A DNA stretch of 63,668 nt, filler included, from Chrysochromulina tobinii (lineage: Eukaryota), in NCBI GenBank assembly GCA_001275005.1. It is 8 parts of 8 records of this genome, joined end to end, with 100 filler letters (N's around TTAATTAATTAA, not from the genome) between each part and the next. Parts side by side here need not be neighbours in the genome. Positions count along the whole stretch, not along the records: positions 15,790 to 21,999 come from JWZX01000370.1; 7 more parts are not named here. One strand, given 5' to 3'. The position numbers and the translations under genes are program-made. Within the stretch, counting starts at the first letter, position 1. Every line of letters begins with the position of its first letter. Of the stretch, positions 5,696 to 58,443 are shown piece after piece. The notes beneath the pieces were generated by a model. The model was not told the DNA's origin. It did no database searches and saw only the letters and a program-made list of their open reading frames with translations.

Positions 5696-8600
5696 ATGAT
5701 GGTGGCGCGACCGCCGCGCACCATGGCAACAGCGCCGGCACAGCCAAACACGTCTTTCTCGGCTGCAGCGTCCGCGCCCGAAGACGCCCCCATGCGCTCT
5801 CGCAGGCATAGCAGCCATAGCAGGGAAAGAGTCGCCACAAGAAACAAGCCGAGGGAGTTCCGAGCTGTGCCCGTCTTGCACTACCCGCTCAAGGAGCAGC
5901 GCTCGATACATGTGCTGCCTCATCAGGAGGAGCTCAACCCATTCCAGGACTATCTTCCACTTTCGACGCACGTGGTGCAGCCGGCGACATCGACAGGCGA
6001 AGACAGTCCGCGCACAGTTCACATTGGCGCAAGCCCCCTCCGTGCAACGCTGAGGCCGGCGCCCGTGCCGCGCGAGCGTCCTCGCACAGCCCTCACCCCG
6101 TCCGAGCTCGACGCGCTGATGACGGAAATCATCCATCGGCCACCGCCTCGGCTGGAGGTCGCGCAGTCGGCTCCTCTGCCGCCGTCGGCCAACGAGTTCT
6201 ACGGCCCGGATATCGACGGCCGCGAGTTGAAGCCCTCTTGGCGGCGCATACACTCCACCCAGTGGCGAGCACGTGTCGACAAGAACTGGCAGCGCGCCGT
6301 CTCGGCCGCGGGCGCGCGAGCTGCACGGCCGTCGACCGCACCTTCTCGAGCGCGAGCGTCCACGCGCTCGTCCAGATTAGGCATGTCCGACTGGACGAAC
6401 GGCTTCGTGGACGACGAGGACGAGGACGAGTACTACGAGGACAACGAAGAGGAGGAGGACGATGGTGTGGAGTCTGCGTCGGATATGGCGAGTGGCGTCG
6501 CCTCGGCACCGGCACCGGCGACTCCGATGGCGTCGGCAAGTCCTATCCGGCAGTCCGCGCCGGTCCTATCCCTCACAACTGCCGAGGGGCAACCATATGG
6601 CAGCACGAAGAGCGCTGGGGCCCTTTCAAAGCTCCTCAGCCGCAGCGCCAGCTCCGGTGCCGGCGGCGGCGGCGGCTGCGGCGGCGGCAACGCGGCTGCC
6701 GGCGGTGCGGCCGGCGTTGCGGCCGGCTCGTGCGGCGGCAGCGTTGCGGGCGGCGTTGCGGGCGGCAGCGGCGGCGGCGGCGGTCCGTTTCGTCTGAAAG
6801 ACATGGCCAAGCTGACCGTTTTGGGGAACGGCAAGGCCAGCAAACTCGCCCGTGAACGCACTGCGAGGGCAGAGGCGTACGCCCAGAAAGCCTTGACGAA
6901 GGCGGAGATGGCTGCCACGGCGGCAGAGGCCTTTGACTCGCGCCACGTGGTGAAGCTGGCTCATACGGTGAAGCTGGAGCGAATGGCGAGCGCGAAGGCG
7001 ACTGAAGATCGCAACTTGTCGTTCAACCAAGCGTTGAAGCGGATCCGATCCAACCGGCTTGTGATCCCCGACGCTCCCCCGGAGATGGTGATTGCATCTG
7101 ATGGCCCCTGATGGCTCTTCATCGCCTGGGGAAGCCTCTGAAGGCCTCTGATGGCCTCTGATGGACTCCGATTGCCTCCCTCATCAGATCCGGCCGATGG
7201 CGGGGATCCCAATCAGGCGGCCGCCTCCCAAGCCCAGATGGAGTTTGGACCGGAGCATTTGGAAGCCACGTGCTGCGTGGTGCGACTCGCAAGAGTTCTG
7301 GGATACCGATACGGCGCGCGTCAAGCGCTTCCATCTCGACTGGGCGAGATTGCTCGCGCTCGGCGTGCCCAAAATGACGCTTCGGCTCGCCGCGCAGGCT
7401 CTCAAAGGGAGCTCCGCTACGCCCCACCCGCAGGCTGCCGATGCGGACGTCTTAGACGACGCGCCCGATGGCAAGGGAAAGCCCAGCGATGCGAAAGGGA
7501 AGGAGGCGGCGGCGGAGGCGGTGGTGGAGGCTGCTTCACAGGCGGAACTGCAGAAGATGAAGGACGTGCTGTGGACCTTTTCGAGCCTACTGCACAACGT
7601 CTTCTCGTTCTACGCGGCCACGGGCGGCGACCCTCTTTACATCCAGCTCAACGAGTGGACGCAATTCCTCATGGACTACAATCTGGTGCAGCTGATGGCC
7701 TCTGATGGCCTCTGATGGCCTCTGATGGCCTCTGATGGCCCCGCTACCAGGTGCAACGCGCCTCGAAGCATTGCAAGAAGGCGGATTGCGATCGCATCTT
7801 TATCGCCGTCGATGCGGCAGCCACACGATTCGCCGAAGCGCTCGAAAAGGATCCAAGCGCCGTCGCGAGCGCTGCGGCCGAGAACCCCATCATGACTGTG
7901 TCGCCCAAACGCGCCGGGTCGCCTTCTGGCGCGCGACCAGGATCGCCTTTCAAGAAGGAGGGGCCGTCACATGTTCACAAGAAGAAGTCGCTAGGACGGG
8001 TGGACTTCCTGGTGAGGGCGTCTGATTGCGCTCTAATTGCGTCTCTGATTGGGCCTCTGATTGTAAATCATTGCCACTGAGCTTGCGCCCTGCCTCTTCC
8101 ACAGACTGCTCTCATCCACTTGTCGCTTCATCGGTTCGTTCTCTCGAACGAGGAGGTGACCCTTTCGGGGGCGCTGTATCGGTTGGTGAGTCTGATTGGG
8201 TCTGATTACACCTCATTGCTCTCGAACGAGGAGACAACCCTCTCGGGCGCGCTGTATCGGTTGGCGACCGCCTCGGATGGTCCTGAGGCTGGCCCCGAGA
8301 TCGTCCCCGAGTTTGTACCCCGAGCGTCCCTACTTGGCAAGTATGGCCTCTGAGCGCGCCCTCCCCCCCCCTCCAATTCGGTAGGTGCATCAACTGATCT
8401 ACAAGCAGGCCGACCCCAGGCAGCTCTCCGACCCAAACTCCTTTCGGCGGCGTCACTGCTACGGCGGTGCCGCCGCGCTCGAGTACAGCCGCACCGGCGA
8501 GGACGTCGATCTCGTGCTGCGAGGTTACGAGGCCCCGTTGCGGTTGGTCTTCAACGCGCTCAACCAGGCCGACTTGGGCGTCGCCGCCACGCTACTCTCG

Positions 8601-15789: not shown

Positions 15790-18700
15790 CGTTTGGACAG
15801 GGCGCCTATGTCAGGTGCATGAGCGCCGCGTGCACCGCGGCCGTCTCGTCGTCGGCCTCGTCCGCGGGCTCGTCAGGCTCGTCAGGTTCGTCAGGTTCGT
15901 CAGCGGACGCTCGCCTTGTGGCCGTGTACACGCACGCTTCCTCGGCGGGCGCTCTCGACCAGCGCTCCATCTTCGCCATCCTGCGCAACGGGACGCGCCT
16001 CACCTACCTCGCAAACAAAGTGTCGACGGTTCGTGTCGGGAGGCCGATGAACGCCGAGACCGGAGCCGGTGGCGGCTACTCGTTCCGCAACCCGCCCAAG
16101 TTCCACTCATTTCTCCGTCCGTCGATCCGAGACGCGGCGTACGAAACTGAGGCGCTGCTTGAGCACCTCTTCTACCACAAGAACGTGGCGCCCTTTATGG
16201 CGCGCCGACTGATCCAGCGCATGGTAATGGCCTCGGATGGCCTCGGATGGCCTCGGATGGCCTCGGATGGCCTCGGATGGCCACTGATGGCCTCGGATGG
16301 CCTCGGATGGCCTCGGATGGCCTCGGATGGCCTCGGATGGCCTCGGATGGCCTCGGATGGCCTCGGATTGTCTCTGATTGCCAATGGCCTCTGATCCAGC
16401 GCATGGACCTAGCGCCGTGGTGAGCACATGGACCCAGCTCCAACCCGTCGCCCGCATTGAAGAAATCACCCCGGAGCCACCCCCCCCCTCCCCCAACAGG
16501 TCTCCTCCAACCCGTCGCCGCGCTACGTGGGCGTCGTCGCGCGCGCGTTTAAGCAAGGTGCGTACGGCGGCACGATCTACAGACATGCAAGTGCTCACCA
16601 CGGCGCCCGCCCTCTTCACAGGTGCATACGGTGGCACGACCTACGGCGCTCACTACGGCGACCTCGGCGCGACGTTCGCAGCAATCCTTCTCGATCGCGA
16701 GGCGCGCTCACTCACGCTCGACATGGATCCCATCCACGGACAGCTGCGCGAGCCCTTGCTCAAGGTCTGATGAGATCTGATGAGATCTGATGAGATCTGA
16801 TGAGATCTGATGAGATCTGATGAGATCGCGAGCCCTTGCTCAAGGTCTGATGAGATCTGATGAGATCTGATGAGATCTGATGAGATCTGATGAGATCTGA
16901 TGAGATCTGATGAGATCGCGAGCCCTTGCTCAAGGTCTGATGAGCTCTGATGGCCTCTGATGTTGACTGAGTGCGACTGAGTGCGACTGAGTGCGACTGA
17001 GTGCGACTGAGTGCGGCTGATTGCCCTTGCTCAAGGTCAGCCGCATCCCTATCCCGAACCCTACCCTGAGCCCTTGCCACAGGTGTACCACATCCTGCGC
17101 ACGCTCGGCTTCGGGAGCAACGGCAAGGGCTACCTGCATGACATCGTAACTGCCGGCTCGATAGGCCAGCAGCACATGAAGGCGCCCACGGTCTTCAACT
17201 TTTACGATCCGCTCTACCAGCCGCCTGGTGCCGTGGCCGAGGTACAGCTCTCGCGGCCTTGATTACCTTGATTACCTTCATCAGAGGCCGAGGTACAGCT
17301 CTCGCGGCCTTGATTACCTTGATTACCTTGATTACCTCGATTAGAGGCCGAGGTACAGCTCGTCTCGCCCGAGCTGCCGCCCGCACTCGCATGCAAGTGC
17401 CCACTACGGCGCCTCGTGCTCGCCCCTCTCCGCCCAGGCACAGCTCGTCTCGCCCGAGGCGCAGCTCGGTACGGGGCCAAACATGGTCGGCTTCCTCAAC
17501 GTGATGACGGGCGTCATCAGGGCTGGCTCGAGCGGCCAGGCCTGGGTGTGGAATGGAATGACGTCCTACCTGCCCATCCACCCAGCCAACAGCTCGGCCA
17601 CGATCGACGAGCTCGAGCTTCTTCTCACTGGCGGCCGGTTGGCCGCGCCCGCCCGCGCCCTCATCAAGGCGCGCTACGAGCAAAAGCTCGCGAGCACCGG
17701 CGGCAACGCTGCAGAAGCGGTGCGAGTCGCGCCTTGATTGCATCTGATACGCCGTTGATTGAGCCTCCCTAATTAGATGCGAGAGTCGCCTAAGAGCTGA
17801 TGACACTTGATTGCATCTGATGCGCCGTTGATTGAGCCTCCCTAATCAGGTGCGAGTCGCCCAAGAGCTCTTCCTCTTTGCGTCCGAGTTCCACGCGAGC
17901 AATTACGTTCAGGAGCGCGCCGTGCCACGCACCGCGCTGCCCGAGATCCCTTCGCAGAACCGGCCGTACAAGGCCATCGTGTACCTGTGGCTTGATGGCG
18001 GCGCCGATACGTGGAACCTGCTCGTGCCGCATAGCCAGTGCACCGGCGGCGTCGATCTGTACAACGAGTACGCGCACCTTGATGACTCCTGATTGCCTCC
18101 CTGATAACGTCGATGACCGCCGAGGGCGTGAGCGCCTCGGATCATGACGATGGCCTGATTGCCTCCCTAATTTGGCATCGATCTCGAGCATGCGACGACG
18201 TTGCACTTTGGCCACTTGAGGGCATTTGAGTGGCCTCTGATGAGCGATGACGACCTCGTCCCTAATTAGGTACGCGGCCGTGCGCGGCGCGAACGCGCTG
18301 CCAAAGTCGACCCAATTGCCCATCGATGTGCCCGCGACCGACGACCAGCCGTGCACCAAGTTTGCGATCCATCACAAGATGACCGCTCTCAAGGCGGCGT
18401 ACGACGCCGCCGACGCAGTCCTGCTTGCCAACATTGGACCCCTCATCCAGCCGTTGGACCTCCAGAGCTATAACAACGGCGCGCCACGCCCGCCGTCGCT
18501 CTTCGCTCACAATCTGCAGACGACCGTCTCGCAGAATGTGCATGCGCAAAACTCCGCCTCCGCGCGGGGTGTGCTCGGGCGCATCCAGCGCGTGCTCGAG
18601 GGCGACCAACCGTCCGGCGAGTTGCCCCACCGCGTGCGCTCGTACTCGATCGCGGGCAACGCCAAGGTGCTCGAAGGCTCGATCTCGGCGCCCGAGATCC

Positions 18701-20519
18701 TCTCATTGCTTGATGGCCTCTGATGGCCTCTGATGGTCTCCCTCATCAGGTGCTCGAAGGCTCGATCTCGGCGCCCGAGATCCTCTCCGCCGATGGACCG
18801 GTCCGTTTGAGCCGTTACGCGGCCTTACAGTCGGACGTGTCCGAGCTGGCCGGTTCGGAGGCGGCGTCCATCTACGCGGAGACTTACGGCGGCGTCCTTG
18901 AACGCTCGATCGAGTCGGCAGAGGACCTGAAGCGCGCGCTCGACAACCCGATCGCGGCGCTCTCGACGACCTTTGGATCCGATGTGGTCTCGAGGCAGCT
19001 CCAGCAGGTGGCTATGACCTCTGATGACCTCTGAGGACCTCTGAGGACCTCTGAGGACCTCTGAGGACCTCTGAGGACCTCTGAGGACCTTGCATGACCT
19101 TGCATGACCTTGCATGCAGCGCGATCTGATCGGTTACCTTGCATGCAGCGCGATCTGAGCGGTTCCGTCCCCCTCGCCTCCGCTCAGGTCGCCAAGATTA
19201 TCGGGGCGCGTTCCATATTAGGTAACGAGCGCGAGATCTTCTTCATCTCATACGGAGGGTGGGACTCGCACTTCGCGGGCGACTACGACGTCGCCAAAAA
19301 GTGGCAGGACGTGAACGCGGGCCTCACGAGCTTCGTCACCGAGATGAAGGCTCAGGGCATCTGGGACAACGTCACGTTCACGATGGCGTCCGAATTCGGT
19401 CGCACGATCGACTCCAACGGCGGAGGTACAGACCACGGCTGGGGCGGCCACTCGTTTGTGATGGGCGGCTCAATCAAGGGCGGCCACATCCTCGGCAAGT
19501 ATCCGAGCACCTACAGCCAGAGCAGCCCGATCCGTCTCCATCGCACCTTCATCCCGACCCTCAGCCACGAGGCGCTATGGCACGGCCTGGCCCAGTGGAT
19601 GGGTGTCGAGGACGCCGTGATGACCAATGTGCTCCCAAACCTCCGCAAGTTCACCAGCGAATGTTCGCCCGGCTTCCCCGGCTGCATCATCCTCACACAG
19701 GTACGTTGATTGCCCCTGATGACCTGCCTTGCATGCAAGTGCTCACCACAGCGCTTCCCCGGCTGCATCATCCTCTCACAGAACATGCTCTTCGACGGAG
19801 CTGCCGGCCCAAGCCCGCCGCCCCAACCACCGCCGTCGCCACCGCCGTCGCCTCCAAAGTCGCCGCCCCCGCCACCCGCGCCGCCCAAGCTTCCCCCCTC
19901 CCCCAGCCTGCCTGTCAGCCGGATCTACTGCCCCGCACCCGGCTTCAACCTCACCACCGACTCGGCAGGCGGCGACAGGTGCGTCGGCTGCTGCTCCTCT
20001 CTGAGGGCCTCTGAGGGCCTCTGATGACCTCTGATTGCGCCACTCATCAGGTGCGTCGGCTGCTGCTCCTCTTCGAATTGGACGTTTCCGATCGGCTGCG
20101 CCGACTCACTGTACATCATCCCTGACCTCAACGGTCTCTACAACGGCGTCAACGTGCGGATGCCGCGCGTGATCAAGTCGCCGTGCTACCACGACGTTGG
20201 CTCGTCGGTCGCCTGGGGCGCCTACGTCGAACGATGCGACATCAACTGGGTCGAGGGCAGCCCCGCACGCCACGCGACGACGGTGCTGTACAAGAGCACG
20301 GGCGAGGAGGTGACCGTGCTGCGCGTCATCAATTTCGGCACGACATACGTGCGTTTCCTCTGCAACGCCGCATCGAGCTGCGCCTCGGCGCTCTACACGA
20401 CGGGCGACACGATCAAGGTCAGGTACCCGAGTCCGATTCAGCCGCGGTCGGTCTTCCCCAACACGAACACGCCATGCGCCATCGGCCTCGGAGTACCGCC
20501 GTCAATGCCGCCCGTTTGA
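15790..20519 (+). CDS. DUF1800-DUF1501 fusion protein with Pro linker and Cys-rich C-terminal domain, 5'-partial, 10 introns
   Basis: Introns 16224-16499, 16558-16621, 16765-17082, 17242-17437, 17720-17849, 18068-18269, 18667-18749, 19008-19187, 19701-19781, 19979-20050. DUF1800-type motifs: LFYHKNVAPF.ARRLIQRMVSSNPSPRYV, GDLGATFAAILLDREAR, GQLREPLLK, APTVFNFY. DUF1501-type motifs: KAIVYLWLDGGADTWNLLVP, LFAHNLQ, GGWDSH, SEFGRTIDSNGGGTDHGWGGHSFVMGG. Confidence 0.88.
16226..16390 (+). repeat. Intronic decamer array (CCTCGGATGG)n
   Basis: About 14 tandem units directly after the GTAATG donor. Confidence 0.95.
16765..17040 (+). repeat. Intronic arrays (CTGATGAGAT)n and (CTGAGTGCGA)n with repeated copies of the exon end and donor
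   Basis: CGCGAGCCCTTGCTCAAGGTC recurs at 16747, 16827 and 16917, and partially at ~17023. Confidence 0.95.
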
Positions 20520-21085
20520 AGCATCAGATTCGTCAATGCCGCCCTTTTGAAGCATCACGAATCTGAAAGCTCATGAAGAGTACTGAAGCATCATCCGCAC
20601 AATGATCATGCTTTATGGGCAGCTCTCAGCTGCACAGTAACACAGTAAGTAAAGTGAAGCAAAGCTGGACCAGCGGTGTGGTGACGTGTAGCTGGGCATG
20701 CAGTGTGTGGTCATCCCGAGGCAGGAATTGGTGTGCACTGTTGCCTGAGGCAGATTGATATGCACACTCTGTTGCCTGAGGAGGTCCGAGCGGACCGGTA
20801 CATTGTTCACCTGTCGTGTGGCAAGGCCAAAGACATGCGAAAGCATACGATGCGGGCGAGCCGGAATGTATTCATGTTTTACGTCTAGAAATATCATTCA
20901 CCACCGAGAGACACAGCGCGCGCGCGCGCGCACGACATACACGAGTCTTTCACTTCCGTTCACACTAGACACTTGTCGCACAACAGTCGCCACCTCTGTC
21001 TCATTCTTCGCTTATGCCCTTTGGTTTTACAAATGTATTAGGAAGTATTACTAAATGCCGCACATCCACATCGCCGCCATGATTC

Positions 21086-21999
21086 TCAACGTGATGAGGC
21101 GCCCTCGAGCGCCTCGATCGCCGTCTTCACCGCGGACACCAGCTGCGACGCCTCCGCCTCGTCCCGTGGGCCATCGCGGCGCCACCGATCGTCGTCGAGG
21201 TGGCTCGCGGCATTCCTCCAAATGCGAAGCGAGTGCAGCCGATCTTTCAGGTCGGCCCGCATGCCACACTCGCGATGCCAATAGTTGATGCGCTCCTCAA
21301 AGCCCTCGGGCGCCTTCGCCGCCCTTGCTGCGTAAATGGCGTCGAGTCGAGGCATCAGGTTGCTGAACGCGAGCAGCATATTGTCCTTGATGCCCTTGTG
21401 CGCATCGGAGCCCTTGCGCGTTTCGCGTACTTGCATCGAGAGCGGCGAGGGCACGTAGCCAGCCGCCGAGCTCGCGGGTCGTTCCGAGCTTGAAAGCACC
21501 GAGCCGTCGAGCGCGCCCTGGCCACTGCCTCTGCTGCCATCTTTATCCACCAGGCTCGTCAGCGTCGCCAGCGCGGCGGACACCGGGAGCCTCTTCCGCT
21601 CCTTGTCGTGGCAAAGACCTGACACGGCAGACTGGACGACGTCCTTGATCGTCGTCGCCACACGCGGGGGCCAGTCCGCCCCGACGTCGGCGAGCTTCTC
21701 GGCGTCGATCTCGGCGAAATCGAGCTCAAACTCCTCTTCGCACTTGTTGATGATCTTTAGAGGCGAGCGGCCAGTCAGCGCCACGAGCAGCGTGATGCCC
21801 AGCGCCCAGCCATCCGTCACAGCTGAGTACGCGCCGCCTGCCGAAACGCTCGGGTCCAGATAGCCGAGGGTGAGGTAGAGCGCATTCGACGCGCTCTTCA
21901 TCTTCGACGCCTCGGGCCCGGCGTCCATCTTGGCGAAGCCCGTGTCCGCGAGGTAGGCGTTGAGCTCGTCGTCGAGCAGGATGTTCTCGGGCTTGAAGT
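21086..21999 (-). CDS. IRAK/Pelle-like protein kinase (C-lobe, 5'-partial) with C-terminal HEPN-like domain
   Basis: Frame is open from the spacer: (D)FKPENILLDDELNAYLADTGFAK...TLGYLDP...DGWALGITLLVALTGR. C-terminal helical domain contains LHSLRIWRNAASH. Confidence 0.85.
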
Positions 22000-22099
22000 N
22001 NNNNNNNNNNNNNNNNNNNNNNNNNNNNNNNNNNNNNNNNNNNTTAATTAATTAANNNNNNNNNNNNNNNNNNNNNNNNNNNNNNNNNNNNNNNNNNNN
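22000..22099. other. Artificial contig spacer
   Basis: N44-TTAATTAATTAA-N44. Confidence 0.99.
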
Positions 22100-24428: not shown

Positions 24429-24611
24429 CGTTTTGGGACGTGTGGACGAAATTCAAATCTGTTCAGATTTCCATTCCTTCTACATGTACAAAGACTGTCC
24501 GCGATACGGATGGTCATTTTGTAAGTTTCATGTTACAAAAGTATCTTCCAAGCCCCGCGCTCGGGCACACTCCCTCACAATACGCCACTCTCTCGGAATG
24601 CTGATGGCGTC

Positions 24612-25658
24612 ATGACCTCAACATTCGCGCGCTACGCCATCGTAACAGGCGCGAACGCCCCAGGAATAGGCTTTCGCACCGCCCAGATCTTGGCCAGCCC
24701 ACCACATCGCTTCCGCGTTGTGCTGGCGTGCCGGGACGAGGCCAAGGGCCTTGCTGCACAGCACGCCATCAGCTCGGCGGACCCGGAGGCGTGGGCGCAA
24801 TACGTACACCTCGATCTCGCCCATCTCGAGTCGGTCCGGCTCTTTGCAGACGCCTTCCGCGCGCTGGATGGCGGGGCTCCTGTCAAGAACGGCCTCTCCC
24901 TACTGGTGTGCAACGCCGCAGTGGGCTTCGGACGCGACAATGAGCGCAAAGTGACGGCAGATGGCTTTGAGCGCGCCATGGGCACGAACCACCTCGGCCA
25001 CTTTTTGCTGGTCAACCTGCTTTTGCCCGACCTGCTTCTCCCCGAGGCAGGCGCGCGCGTCGTCGTCGTCGGTTCAAGCCTGCACGACCCCAAGAGTAGC
25101 GGCGGCGGTACGAGCAAGAAGCCGACAACGCTAGGCGACCTCGACGACCTGATGCTCGAGCGGCCCGGCGCGTACGAAGTCGGGTATGCCTACCGGCGCT
25201 CCAAGTTGGCCAACATGCTCTTCGCGTGCGAGTTGCACCGGCGTCTCAAGGCCGCCAGGTGCAACTCGGTGAACGTGAGGGCGCTCGAGCCAGGCTTCAT
25301 CCCACAGACGGCCCTCGGGCGCGAGGCGGGGGCGCTGGGCATGTTCTTCATGCAATGGGTCTTGGACGGCGTGCTCAAGTGGGTCGGTCTCGTCAACTTC
25401 ACGAGGACGATCGAGGAGGGGGCAACTTGTGAGGTGCTCGTCTCCACTGCGCCGGACGCCGCGGAGGGCGGCTACCACCGACTGAGTCGTCACGGGCCGT
25501 TCCTCGAGCTCATCCAGCCAAGCGAGGAGGCGCGAAACGAGAACCTGGCGAGGCGATTGTGGGAGATGAGCGCGAAGCTCACAGGCTGCGACGAGACCTC
25601 GTTGGCCATTGCAGGCGGCGCCACGCCCTCGACGCCACGGATGGCCGATGATAAATGA
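24612..25658 (+). CDS. Short-chain dehydrogenase/reductase (retinol-DH / protochlorophyllide-reductase-like subgroup)
   Basis: IVTGANAPGIG, LVCNAAV, TADGFE..MGTNHLGHFLL, YRRSK catalytic YxxxK, ARRLWEMSAKL. Confidence 0.9.
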   Translation: MTSTFARYAIVTGANAPGIGFRTAQILASPPHRFRVVLACRDEAKGLAAQHAISSADPEAWAQYVHLDLAHLESVRLFADAFRALDGGAPVKNGLSLLVCNAAVGFGRDNERKVTADGFERAMGTNHLGHFLLVNLLLPDLLLPEAGARVVVVGSSLHDPKSSGGGTSKKPTTLGDLDDLMLERPGAYEVGYAYRRSKLANMLFACELHRRLKAARCNSVNVRALEPGFIPQTALGREAGALGMFFMQWVLDGVLKWVGLVNFTRTIEEGATCEVLVSTAPDAAEGGYHRLSRHGPFLELIQPSEEARNENLARRLWEMSAKLTGCDETSLAIAGGATPSTPRMADDK

Positions 25659-57136: not shown

Positions 57137-58443
57137 TGCTGCCCTTCGACTTTCTTGTGTCCATGCCATCCCTGTGTCCATGCCATTCAGTATGCCATGT
57201 TGCCATTCGGTCCTGCGTGCGCGCATCCCGCTTGTGTGCATGCCATGAGCACACGCGCATGGAGAGAGTGCATGCGCGCATGGAGAGAGTGCACGCGCGC
57301 GCAGAGAGCTGCAGACGTTGGCGAGTGCGGAGCGACGACTGGCGGCTGACGAGGCGAGCGTGAGCTGAGCTGAACGGCGTGAGGGAGAGGGTTATCGGAC
57401 TGCGCCTTCATTGCGCTGCAGCACGGGCCCTCTCACTTGCGCTGGTCATCTCGACGAGCGTGACGCGGCGCCAGCCGACCTCGAGCACCTCGGCCGACAT
57501 CACGTTAGGATCTCTCCGAGCTCAACGCGGACAAGTACTAGAAGCGCGCGCATGAGAGCCTCGGCGTCGTCCAGAAGCGAGCAGGTGCGCCCACCGTCGG
57601 CGCGGCGGTTCGGGGGCGTGGGGAGCTCTACGAACTGGATACCGTGGCGGGTGATGGCGGGGCTCGGGACGCGTCGGCGGGCGAGGTCCGATCCAGCGAG
57701 TGCAGCCGACGAGGGGCCGGTCCCTTGTGTGCTGCCGTTGGTGTAGGTGACCTGACGCACAGGCCGCGCTGCAACACCACTGTTGACTACGAGAACTTCT
57801 TGGCCGACGACAGGCTGGGCCCGCGAGCGGGCTTTCAGACCACGCGGCCAGCCAGGCGCCTATCCCCTCTTTCTCTCCCTCAGTCCCCCCATCTTATGCT
57901 CGACGCCACGGTCGAACTCGAGCCGATTTCCTCTTCGGCGTAAGAGTGGCGCTCATCGGCTCGAGATCGGCCCGTTACTTCTCACCTACTTCTTCTCCGA
58001 GGGCACGTATGTCAGCATCTATGACGTGTCACCTCATTATGGACCCCCCTCCGTCATCTCCGCCCACTCCCGTCCTCCCCTGCTGGCTTCCGGAGCACAT
58101 TCGATAGGCTTCCGTATGGTTGTCTGTAATTTATGTATAGACTTGACTTGACTTGACGTTAGCAACTATTCATATGGAAAGGTTAACACGGAGCTGATAC
58201 ACGTATGTGAAATCATCAAACTAATCATTGTTACATGTACAATGTACCCAGAATCCTGAAACCCGGATTCCAGACGCCCACGATCTGCCCCAGGATGCGA
58301 TTTGGCAGCGTCCACGTCGACGAACACGCAAGCGTGCGTGCGGCGGCCGAAGATCCGTCCGAACGCGGCACTAGTGTGTGTAGAGTATCGCACGGCCCGA
58401 TGTCGTTTCAGTAACGTACGGTAGGGACCGGTAGGGTTTTGTG

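Follow-up and report, generated by a model that had tools for sequence, protein, structure and literature searches.

An ankyrin-kinase gene family of haptophytes with a predicted HEPN-type C-terminal domain and an RNase L-like domain order

RNase L, found in jawed vertebrates, combines N-terminal ankyrin repeats with a pseudokinase and a C-terminal KEN domain (PF06479) (PMC10400998, section 6), and other KEN proteins have gained ankyrins independently (PMC10400998). HEPN enzymes need to dimerise, a step driven by the N-terminal module in both RNase L and IRE1 (PMC10942766). DUF4145 (PF13643), a HEPN family (PMC3710099), is tabulated from bacteria, archaea and dsDNA viruses with fusions to REase, Sel1 and TIR/ATPase modules (PMC3710099, Table 1). 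Fungal NLR non-self receptors, as described in PMC4986451, carry near-identical ANK/TPR repeats whose number varies and whose concave face is under diversifying selection, and their modules are shuffled.

Here, we analysed a window of 63,668 nucleotides from Chrysochromulina tobinii (the whole stretch of DNA under study), in which eukaryotic contigs are strung together via N-runs. On the contig at 15790-21999, the first-pass annotation had described an IRAK/Pelle-like kinase fused to a HEPN-like domain, a candidate RNase L-type immune effector whose N-terminal sensor would lie past the contig end. The minus-strand ORF runs from the contig end at 21999 to a TGA at 21086-21088 and encodes 303 aa beginning with FKPEN (Table 1).

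Table 1 Features of the gene fragment and its surroundings in the window
Feature	Position	Strand	Basis or remark
3' part of the ankyrin-kinase-HEPN gene (HEPN predicted), 303 codons plus stop, cut by the contig end	21086..21999	-	ORF reading; read-through in L001/L002
Artificial contig joint (N44 - spacer - N44)	22000..22099	.	Unrelated contig beyond; gene severed here
C-lobe of an RLK/Pelle/IRAK-class kinase (end of catalytic loop, activation segment, helices)	21551..21997	-	Pkinase E 3.3e-11, residues 2-143
DTG replacing DFG	21938..21946	-	Family-wide signature, not a lesion
Ser/Gly-rich linker, ~31 aa, poorly conserved	21458..21550	-	Sequence comparison
Short conserved element ahead of the HEPN core, Y-x-P-[TS]-x-L-S-x-Q-V-R	21413..21457	-	S 96%, V 97%, R 97% (54-60 rows covering those columns)
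Predicted HEPN-fold domain, DUF4145-like	21092..21403	-	Structure model, structure searches, Pfam in relatives
R-N-A-A-S-H, canonical HEPN motif	21200..21217	-	A-N-A-A-R-H in most close paralogues

Full-length gene and kinase

A query with the tail domain alone returned 57 longer proteins (the closest homologues set), among which every organism-labelled entry is from a haptophyte, namely Chrysochromulina tobinii, Emiliania huxleyi or Calcidiscus leptoporus, and at least five Emiliania huxleyi CCMP1516 entries belong to the family. The 939-aa protein P0003, with 99.3% identity across the 303 aa of the window, comprises ankyrin repeats, a charged helical linker of ~210 aa, the kinase and the tail, in that order, and is encoded in a single, intronless open frame at two loci, L001 and L002, which are 99.9% and 99.7% identical to the window contig (6.1-6.2 kb). 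The sensor was thus rightly placed past the contig end: the ORF is still open at 21999, and the 5' end recovered from L001/L002 encodes an ankyrin array. The same order of ankyrin repeats, kinase and tail occurs at the matching locus and also in paralogues.

A further locus, L003, matches the window contig equally well but carries another, longer ankyrin array and another upstream flank, the switch between L002 and L003 (near 7000-7100 of these loci) lying ~400 bases upstream of the window contig's end. L005 and L006 diverge at the same place, with a shared 3' half and downstream flank and with unlike arrays and upstream flanks. Both differences may reflect recombination, that is, sensor swapping, or mis-assembly between near-identical copies; the upstream and downstream flanks of L002 are both present in one DNA run at like depth, with no bridging contig. 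Whether the L002 or the L003 form applies, the missing sensor of the window gene is, judging from these loci, an ankyrin array. Retroposition or a mobile element, prompted by the intronless gene and by a likeness that ends at the stop, is unsupported, the flanks carrying no shared terminal repeats or poly-A.

Within the linker, residues ~270-430 of P0003 and their counterparts in relatives contain a conserved 'A-x-x-L-L-A-E-E' helix, a Lys-rich stretch and a helical block ending in an R/K-rich 'LKEKRKKESQ'; this part is common to the ankyrin, Sel1, PDZ and Arm versions and may serve as a coiled coil, as a nuclear signal or in binding RNA. Elsewhere in the window, the product of an intron-bearing neighbour gene at 17800-20520 (+) belongs to DUF1501 (E 3.4e-27), a family found mostly in bacteria, and has a Pro-rich tail after the DUF1501 part. 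The next contig encodes a short-chain dehydrogenase at 24525-25658 (+) (adh_short, E 4e-12), and ~290 bases at 57865-58154 have a 96% match in L013/L014 immediately upstream of a paralogue coding region, probably as a small dispersed repeat. At L008, a tandem duplicate of the coding region's last 28 bases lies past the stop, after position 1019.

RNA libraries contained low-depth contigs over the kinase and HEPN parts and none over intergenic gaps, and one RNA contig crosses the stop into the window locus's own 3' flank. In three RNA runs the ankyrin part had no coverage at 98%, a result from contigs, which cannot show absence. These data give a weak hint that the family gene is expressed.

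The full kinase of a close paralogue found its best PDB matches in BIK1 (4e-25), PBL2, SYMRK, FERONIA and IRAK1 (5e-20), in agreement with the IRAK/Pelle-like class first assigned to the fragment. The best 60 PDB matches were of the RLK/Pelle/IRAK class, with a few CaMK/S6K entries at the end and neither IRE1 nor RNase L among them, and GxGGxG, VAVK, HRD and DxG likewise place the kinase in this class. GxGG, V/I-K, HRD and DxG were kept in 17/17 long members checked, save one lysine motif outside the search pattern. DTG, read as a replacement for DFG in the fragment, is present there and across the family, and its interpretation as a dead-kinase mark is ruled out by this family-wide occurrence and by the intact HRD and lysine. 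From these motifs, the family kinase looks apparently active. In addition, a kinase is present in 32/35 tail-domain matches with enough upstream sequence, and all or part of the tail domain is carried by 18/20 kinase matches, the two exceptions stopping or frameshifting after the kinase; the kinase-HEPN pairing is stable across the family.

The C-terminal domain and its mobile arginine

A model of the tail built with 82 aligned relatives reached a pLDDT of 88.9, and a model from the single sequence was weak (pLDDT 67; HepT at ranks 3, 5 and 6 with E > 3). In a VIA structure search of 48,161 chains, which is independent of Foldseek, HEPN-superfamily chains ranked first with Z 9.7-7.8, values under the ~13 that common, unrelated helical bundles can attain, and the top matches superposed at an r.m.s.d. 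of 2.7-3.8 over ~100-116 residues. They were led by 1wwp (Z 9.7, r.m.s.d. 3.8, 110 aligned), SO_3166 (Z 9.3) and AF0298, a HEPN protein by title (Z 9.1, r.m.s.d. 2.7, 101 aligned), and included YutE, a Cas nuclease, DrrA, two HEPN toxins (by title) and HepS. We take 1wwp, YutE, SO_3166, HepS and the Cas nuclease to be HEPN-superfamily chains. DrrA is listed as HEPN in Table 1 of PMC3710099. The Foldseek list was headed by YutE, Cas13b, HepT and AF0298, with a best E of 0.34 and no match at E <= 0.001. A number of the best-scoring structures share the HEPN fold but lack the RNase motif; KEN chains of IRE1 or RNase L were not among the best 50 VIA matches listed, an absence that carries no evidential weight.

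By sequence, the window tail matched DUF4145 at E 0.045 and 14.2 bits, below the gathering score of 23.1, and relatives scored 16.5-26 bits, with P0104, whose N-terminal part is not a kinase, at 26 and thus above the cut-off, P0132 at 23.0 and P0126 at 20.3. PF06479 (KEN) gave no match in any Pfam scan of the tail domain or of full-length members, and sequence profiles A1 and A2 against the PDB returned no HEPN and only weak coiled-coil matches. The best-kept tail residues are L-R-x-W-x-N-x-x-x-H. For the second conserved acidic residue that many HEPN families have (E-x3-[KR]), no helix-1 acidic column exceeded 60%, and D88 (86%) and E102 (69%) sit after the motif. PADLOC reported weak PD-T4-5 matches (E 0.014-0.026) in 3/22 sequences, and bacterial clusters in the ESM Atlas at 0.91-0.94 are a mere lead.

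Because helical bundles outside the superfamily can score as high, the HEPN call rests on the agreement of structure and sequence: HEPN chains head both structure lists, P0104 passes the DUF4145 cut-off, and the conserved residues are exactly those of the motif. The tail is therefore predicted to adopt the HEPN-superfamily fold as an all-helical, four-helix domain of 100-120 aa, as the first-pass annotation had proposed. The non-significant Foldseek E, the moderate Z and the E of the window's DUF4145 match would suit an unrelated helical bundle bearing the motif by chance, a reading that we regard as highly improbable given that these three independent lines agree. The domain does follow the Ser/Gly linker as annotated, but its start falls ~35 residues before FEERINYW, with the first core helix near residue 199. 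The conserved element between linker and core was modelled as a short helix with low pLDDT and, by its conservation, is a candidate docking or phosphorylation element.

The R-N-x3-H seen in the fragment, an instance of the HEPN motif R-x4-6-H with a polar residue after R, is present as RNAASH, a form carried by 14/57 of the closest homologues; the other 43/57 begin with Ala or Ser and have their Arg at position 5 (55 scored by pattern, 2 by eye). Across the wider family (170 rows covering the motif out of 200, the rows being related and a few of them frameshifted fragments), Arg occupies position 1 only in 98 rows, position 5 only in 71, both in 1 and neither in 0, and Asn (N2) is kept in 165/170. 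The position-1 Arg is thus the minority form among the 57 closest homologues and the majority form across the wider family. Conservation of both R and H, on which the annotated active site depends, held for the His (H6; 162/170) and for one Arg at position 1 or 5 (170/170), but not for the position-1 Arg itself, which is absent in 71/170.

In a tree with positions 1 and 5 masked (FastTree, 109 rows, weak root; 91 rows left out for more than 30 gaps, lack of N2/H6 or duplication), R-N-x3-H spreads across deep branches, the position-5 forms fall mostly in one clade and RNAASH is nested within. Arg switches run in both directions on the trees. On a kinase tree of 50 rows, RNAASH needs 8 changes, and a pair of proteins whose kinase segments are identical carries different motifs. 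This mosaic spread, together with the identical kinases bearing unlike motifs, suggests gene conversion among paralogues.

The change of Arg between positions 1 and 5 takes three base substitutions in two codons. Because the two positions lie in one helix of the model, a single helical turn apart, we infer that selection holds one Arg close to the His, as a functional active site would lead one to expect. With the canonical Arg absent in 71/170 rows, part of the family may be inactive, and the protein could be an immune or non-self receptor kinase whose output is phosphorylation and whose HEPN domain, lacking catalysis, serves to bind RNA or to form dimers. The large clade without the canonical Arg and the active look of the kinase would suit such a receptor, and inactive HEPN families exist (PMC3710099, section 6). 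We nevertheless consider it unlikely: N and H are kept at 95-97%, an Arg is always retained within one helical turn, the window copy has the canonical motif, and the same section of PMC3710099 describes other HEPN families in which alternative basic residues stand in. If the HEPN Arg can move by one helical turn, the calling of 'inactive' HEPN domains would change.

Sensor diversification and proposed function

The N-terminal modules of the family vary and comprise ankyrin, Sel1, Arm, PDZ, cold-shock and unknown helical types, single cases possibly being gene-calling joins. P0232 and P0233 have an Arm-like region, without a Pfam match, after their first 80 aa, which we take by eye to resemble a DEK-C-like helical domain. 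The family is multi-copy, with 15 distinct 3' flanks and one frameshifted copy among the 32 closest loci (pooled from several assemblies). A frameshifted copy with a decayed motif, ASVTRH (P0040; L045/L046/L048:8001-8362), fits a pseudogene of birth-and-death turnover.

Ankyrin units number 5-14 per gene (11 genes), and in 10 genes all 79/79 repeats differ, most strongly at positions 5, 13, 3 and 9. At six positions presumed to form the binding face, which we picked after DARPin design, dN/dS was 3.5 (gene bootstrap 2.95-4.13) against 0.99 at the remaining positions, and 66/20,000 random position sets reached the binding-face value. These are pairwise, non-independent counts from probably recombining repeats, so that the contrast is more reliable than the dN/dS value as such; the framework dN/dS of ~1 suggests that repeat homogenisation lowers dS, and the 3.5 is possibly inflated. 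The kinase C-lobe (0.26) and the HEPN domain (0.25) are under purifying selection. As sequence patterns, the exchange of modules, the turnover of copies, the varying number of repeats and the surplus of amino-acid change on the ankyrin binding face fit the signs of an arms race. Viral contigs held no relative, with 0/11 pattern matches confirmed.

Taking these observations together, we favour, with modest confidence, a one-chain cytoplasmic non-self receptor in which ankyrin repeats bind a foreign protein, kinases pair and a HEPN pair cuts RNA. The variable ankyrin array would bind the foreign protein, the hypervariability of the repeats favouring a protein ligand over a small messenger of the 2-5A kind. 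Next, the IRAK-like kinases would pair up and cross-phosphorylate, and a shared RNase active site, formed where two predicted HEPN domains come together, would cut cellular or viral RNA; activation by dimer formation is proposed by analogy with other HEPN enzymes (PMC10942766). Because 31 aa of flexible linker part the kinase from the HEPN domain, coupling would run through the conserved element ahead of the HEPN core, by its docking or its phosphorylation, and not through a rigid joint. The infected cell would stop growing or die, and the most probable trigger would be either a giant virus or a bacterium living inside the cell.

Two other readings have to be weighed. A kinase-gated RNase for endogenous signalling, such as IRE1-like mRNA decay under stress or cycle control, with N-terminal modules that bind the alga's own proteins, would accord with the PDZ, Arm and cold-shock modules of some members, typical of ordinary signalling, and with purifying selection on kinase and HEPN domain; it seems to us improbable, as no transmembrane or luminal part was seen in full-length members, and copy turnover, repeat-number variation and the excess change on the binding face are easier to reconcile with a foreign target that keeps changing than with a self partner. 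Less likely still in our estimate is a system by which algal cells tell self from non-self, or a selfish toxin system among them, acting in mating or fusion incompatibility or in prey or symbiont control and not against viruses. Such a system would match the mosaic motif spread that suggests gene conversion among paralogues, and fungal incompatibility genes share the repeat evolution (PMC4986451); against it, a single family copy was found per locus in 59 loci, with no linked antidote or partner gene seen, and the analysis met no sign of cell fusion systems in these algae.

Beyond the one-chain non-self receptor, we tentatively put forward a bolder proposal, somewhat short of an even chance in our judgement: haptophytes may have arrived on their own at an antiviral system of the RNase L kind, in the form of a receptor repertoire that diversifies. 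Exchangeable sensors, made of DARPin-like ankyrin repeats (or of Sel1, Arm or PDZ modules), would make direct contact with pathogen proteins and be followed by a conserved kinase-HEPN killing cassette, whose active site would come in two mutually replaceable designs, R-N-x3-H and x-N-x2-R-H, each of them catalytic. To our knowledge, how giant viruses are detected inside the cells of bloom-forming algae such as Emiliania and Chrysochromulina is largely an open question. The presence of named genes in a cultured, sequenced host-virus model (Emiliania huxleyi CCMP1516), combined with RNA cleavage as a simple read-out, makes the question testable, and a modular binder-gated RNase could serve as a tool scaffold.

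Comparison with known systems

We found no description of a haptophyte ankyrin-kinase-HEPN family in the literature; neither Emiliania nor haptophytes are mentioned in the main text of PMC3710099 or PMC10400998, and the full sequence lists of PMC3710099 could contain members. Among the HEPN families, DUF4145 is the closest, as the best Pfam match of the tail domain and in motif and size, whereas the present family differs from DUF4145 as tabulated in being eukaryotic, in its fusion to an IRAK-like kinase and in the clade with Arg at position 5. Plant RLCKs and animal IRAKs (BIK1, PBL2, IRAK1/4) share the kinase class but have DFG and no nuclease, in contrast to the DTG and predicted HEPN domain found here. 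Fungal NLR-like receptors share the repeat behaviour and the module shuffling; unlike them, the haptophyte family has a kinase in place of the NACHT/NB-ARC switch, an N-terminal sensor and a HEPN domain as the putative effector.

IRE1 resembles the family in that an apparently active kinase is followed by a HEPN-type domain. Its luminal sensor and transmembrane segment have no counterpart in full-length haptophyte members, in which no membrane span or luminal domain was seen, and the haptophyte proteins differ further in both kinase and nuclease families, in their expansion and in their swappable N-termini. The likeness to RNase L is closer than the fragment could reveal, with the recovered ankyrin N-terminus completing the RNase L-type architecture first suspected: N-terminal ankyrin repeats, a protein-kinase fold and a C-terminal HEPN-superfamily domain with R-N-x3-H stand in the same order. 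However, RNase L has a pseudokinase and a KEN domain, whereas the haptophyte family has an RLK/Pelle/IRAK kinase with intact catalytic motifs and a DUF4145-like domain, and its linkers, ~210 charged, helical aa after the ankyrins and 31 flexible aa before the HEPN domain, are also unlike those of RNase L. The conserved 2-5A-binding array of RNase L likewise contrasts with the hypervariable repeats of variable number in this multi-copy family, which would argue against one fixed small ligand such as 2-5A. Ankyrin-bearing KEN proteins have an IRE1-type core, which is lacking here.

Differing in both kinase class and nuclease family, the haptophyte proteins are, as far as their sequences tell, not members of the RNase L/IRE1 group. 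Because neither the kinase nor the predicted nuclease is of IRE1/RNase L type, the ankyrin-kinase-HEPN architecture appears convergent with that of RNase L, in line with the independent assembly already envisaged from the fragment: the kinase is RLK/Pelle/IRAK, the nuclease domain is DUF4145-like, and PF06479 is unmatched. Ankyrin-kinase-HEPN would then have arisen twice in eukaryotes, from different parts.
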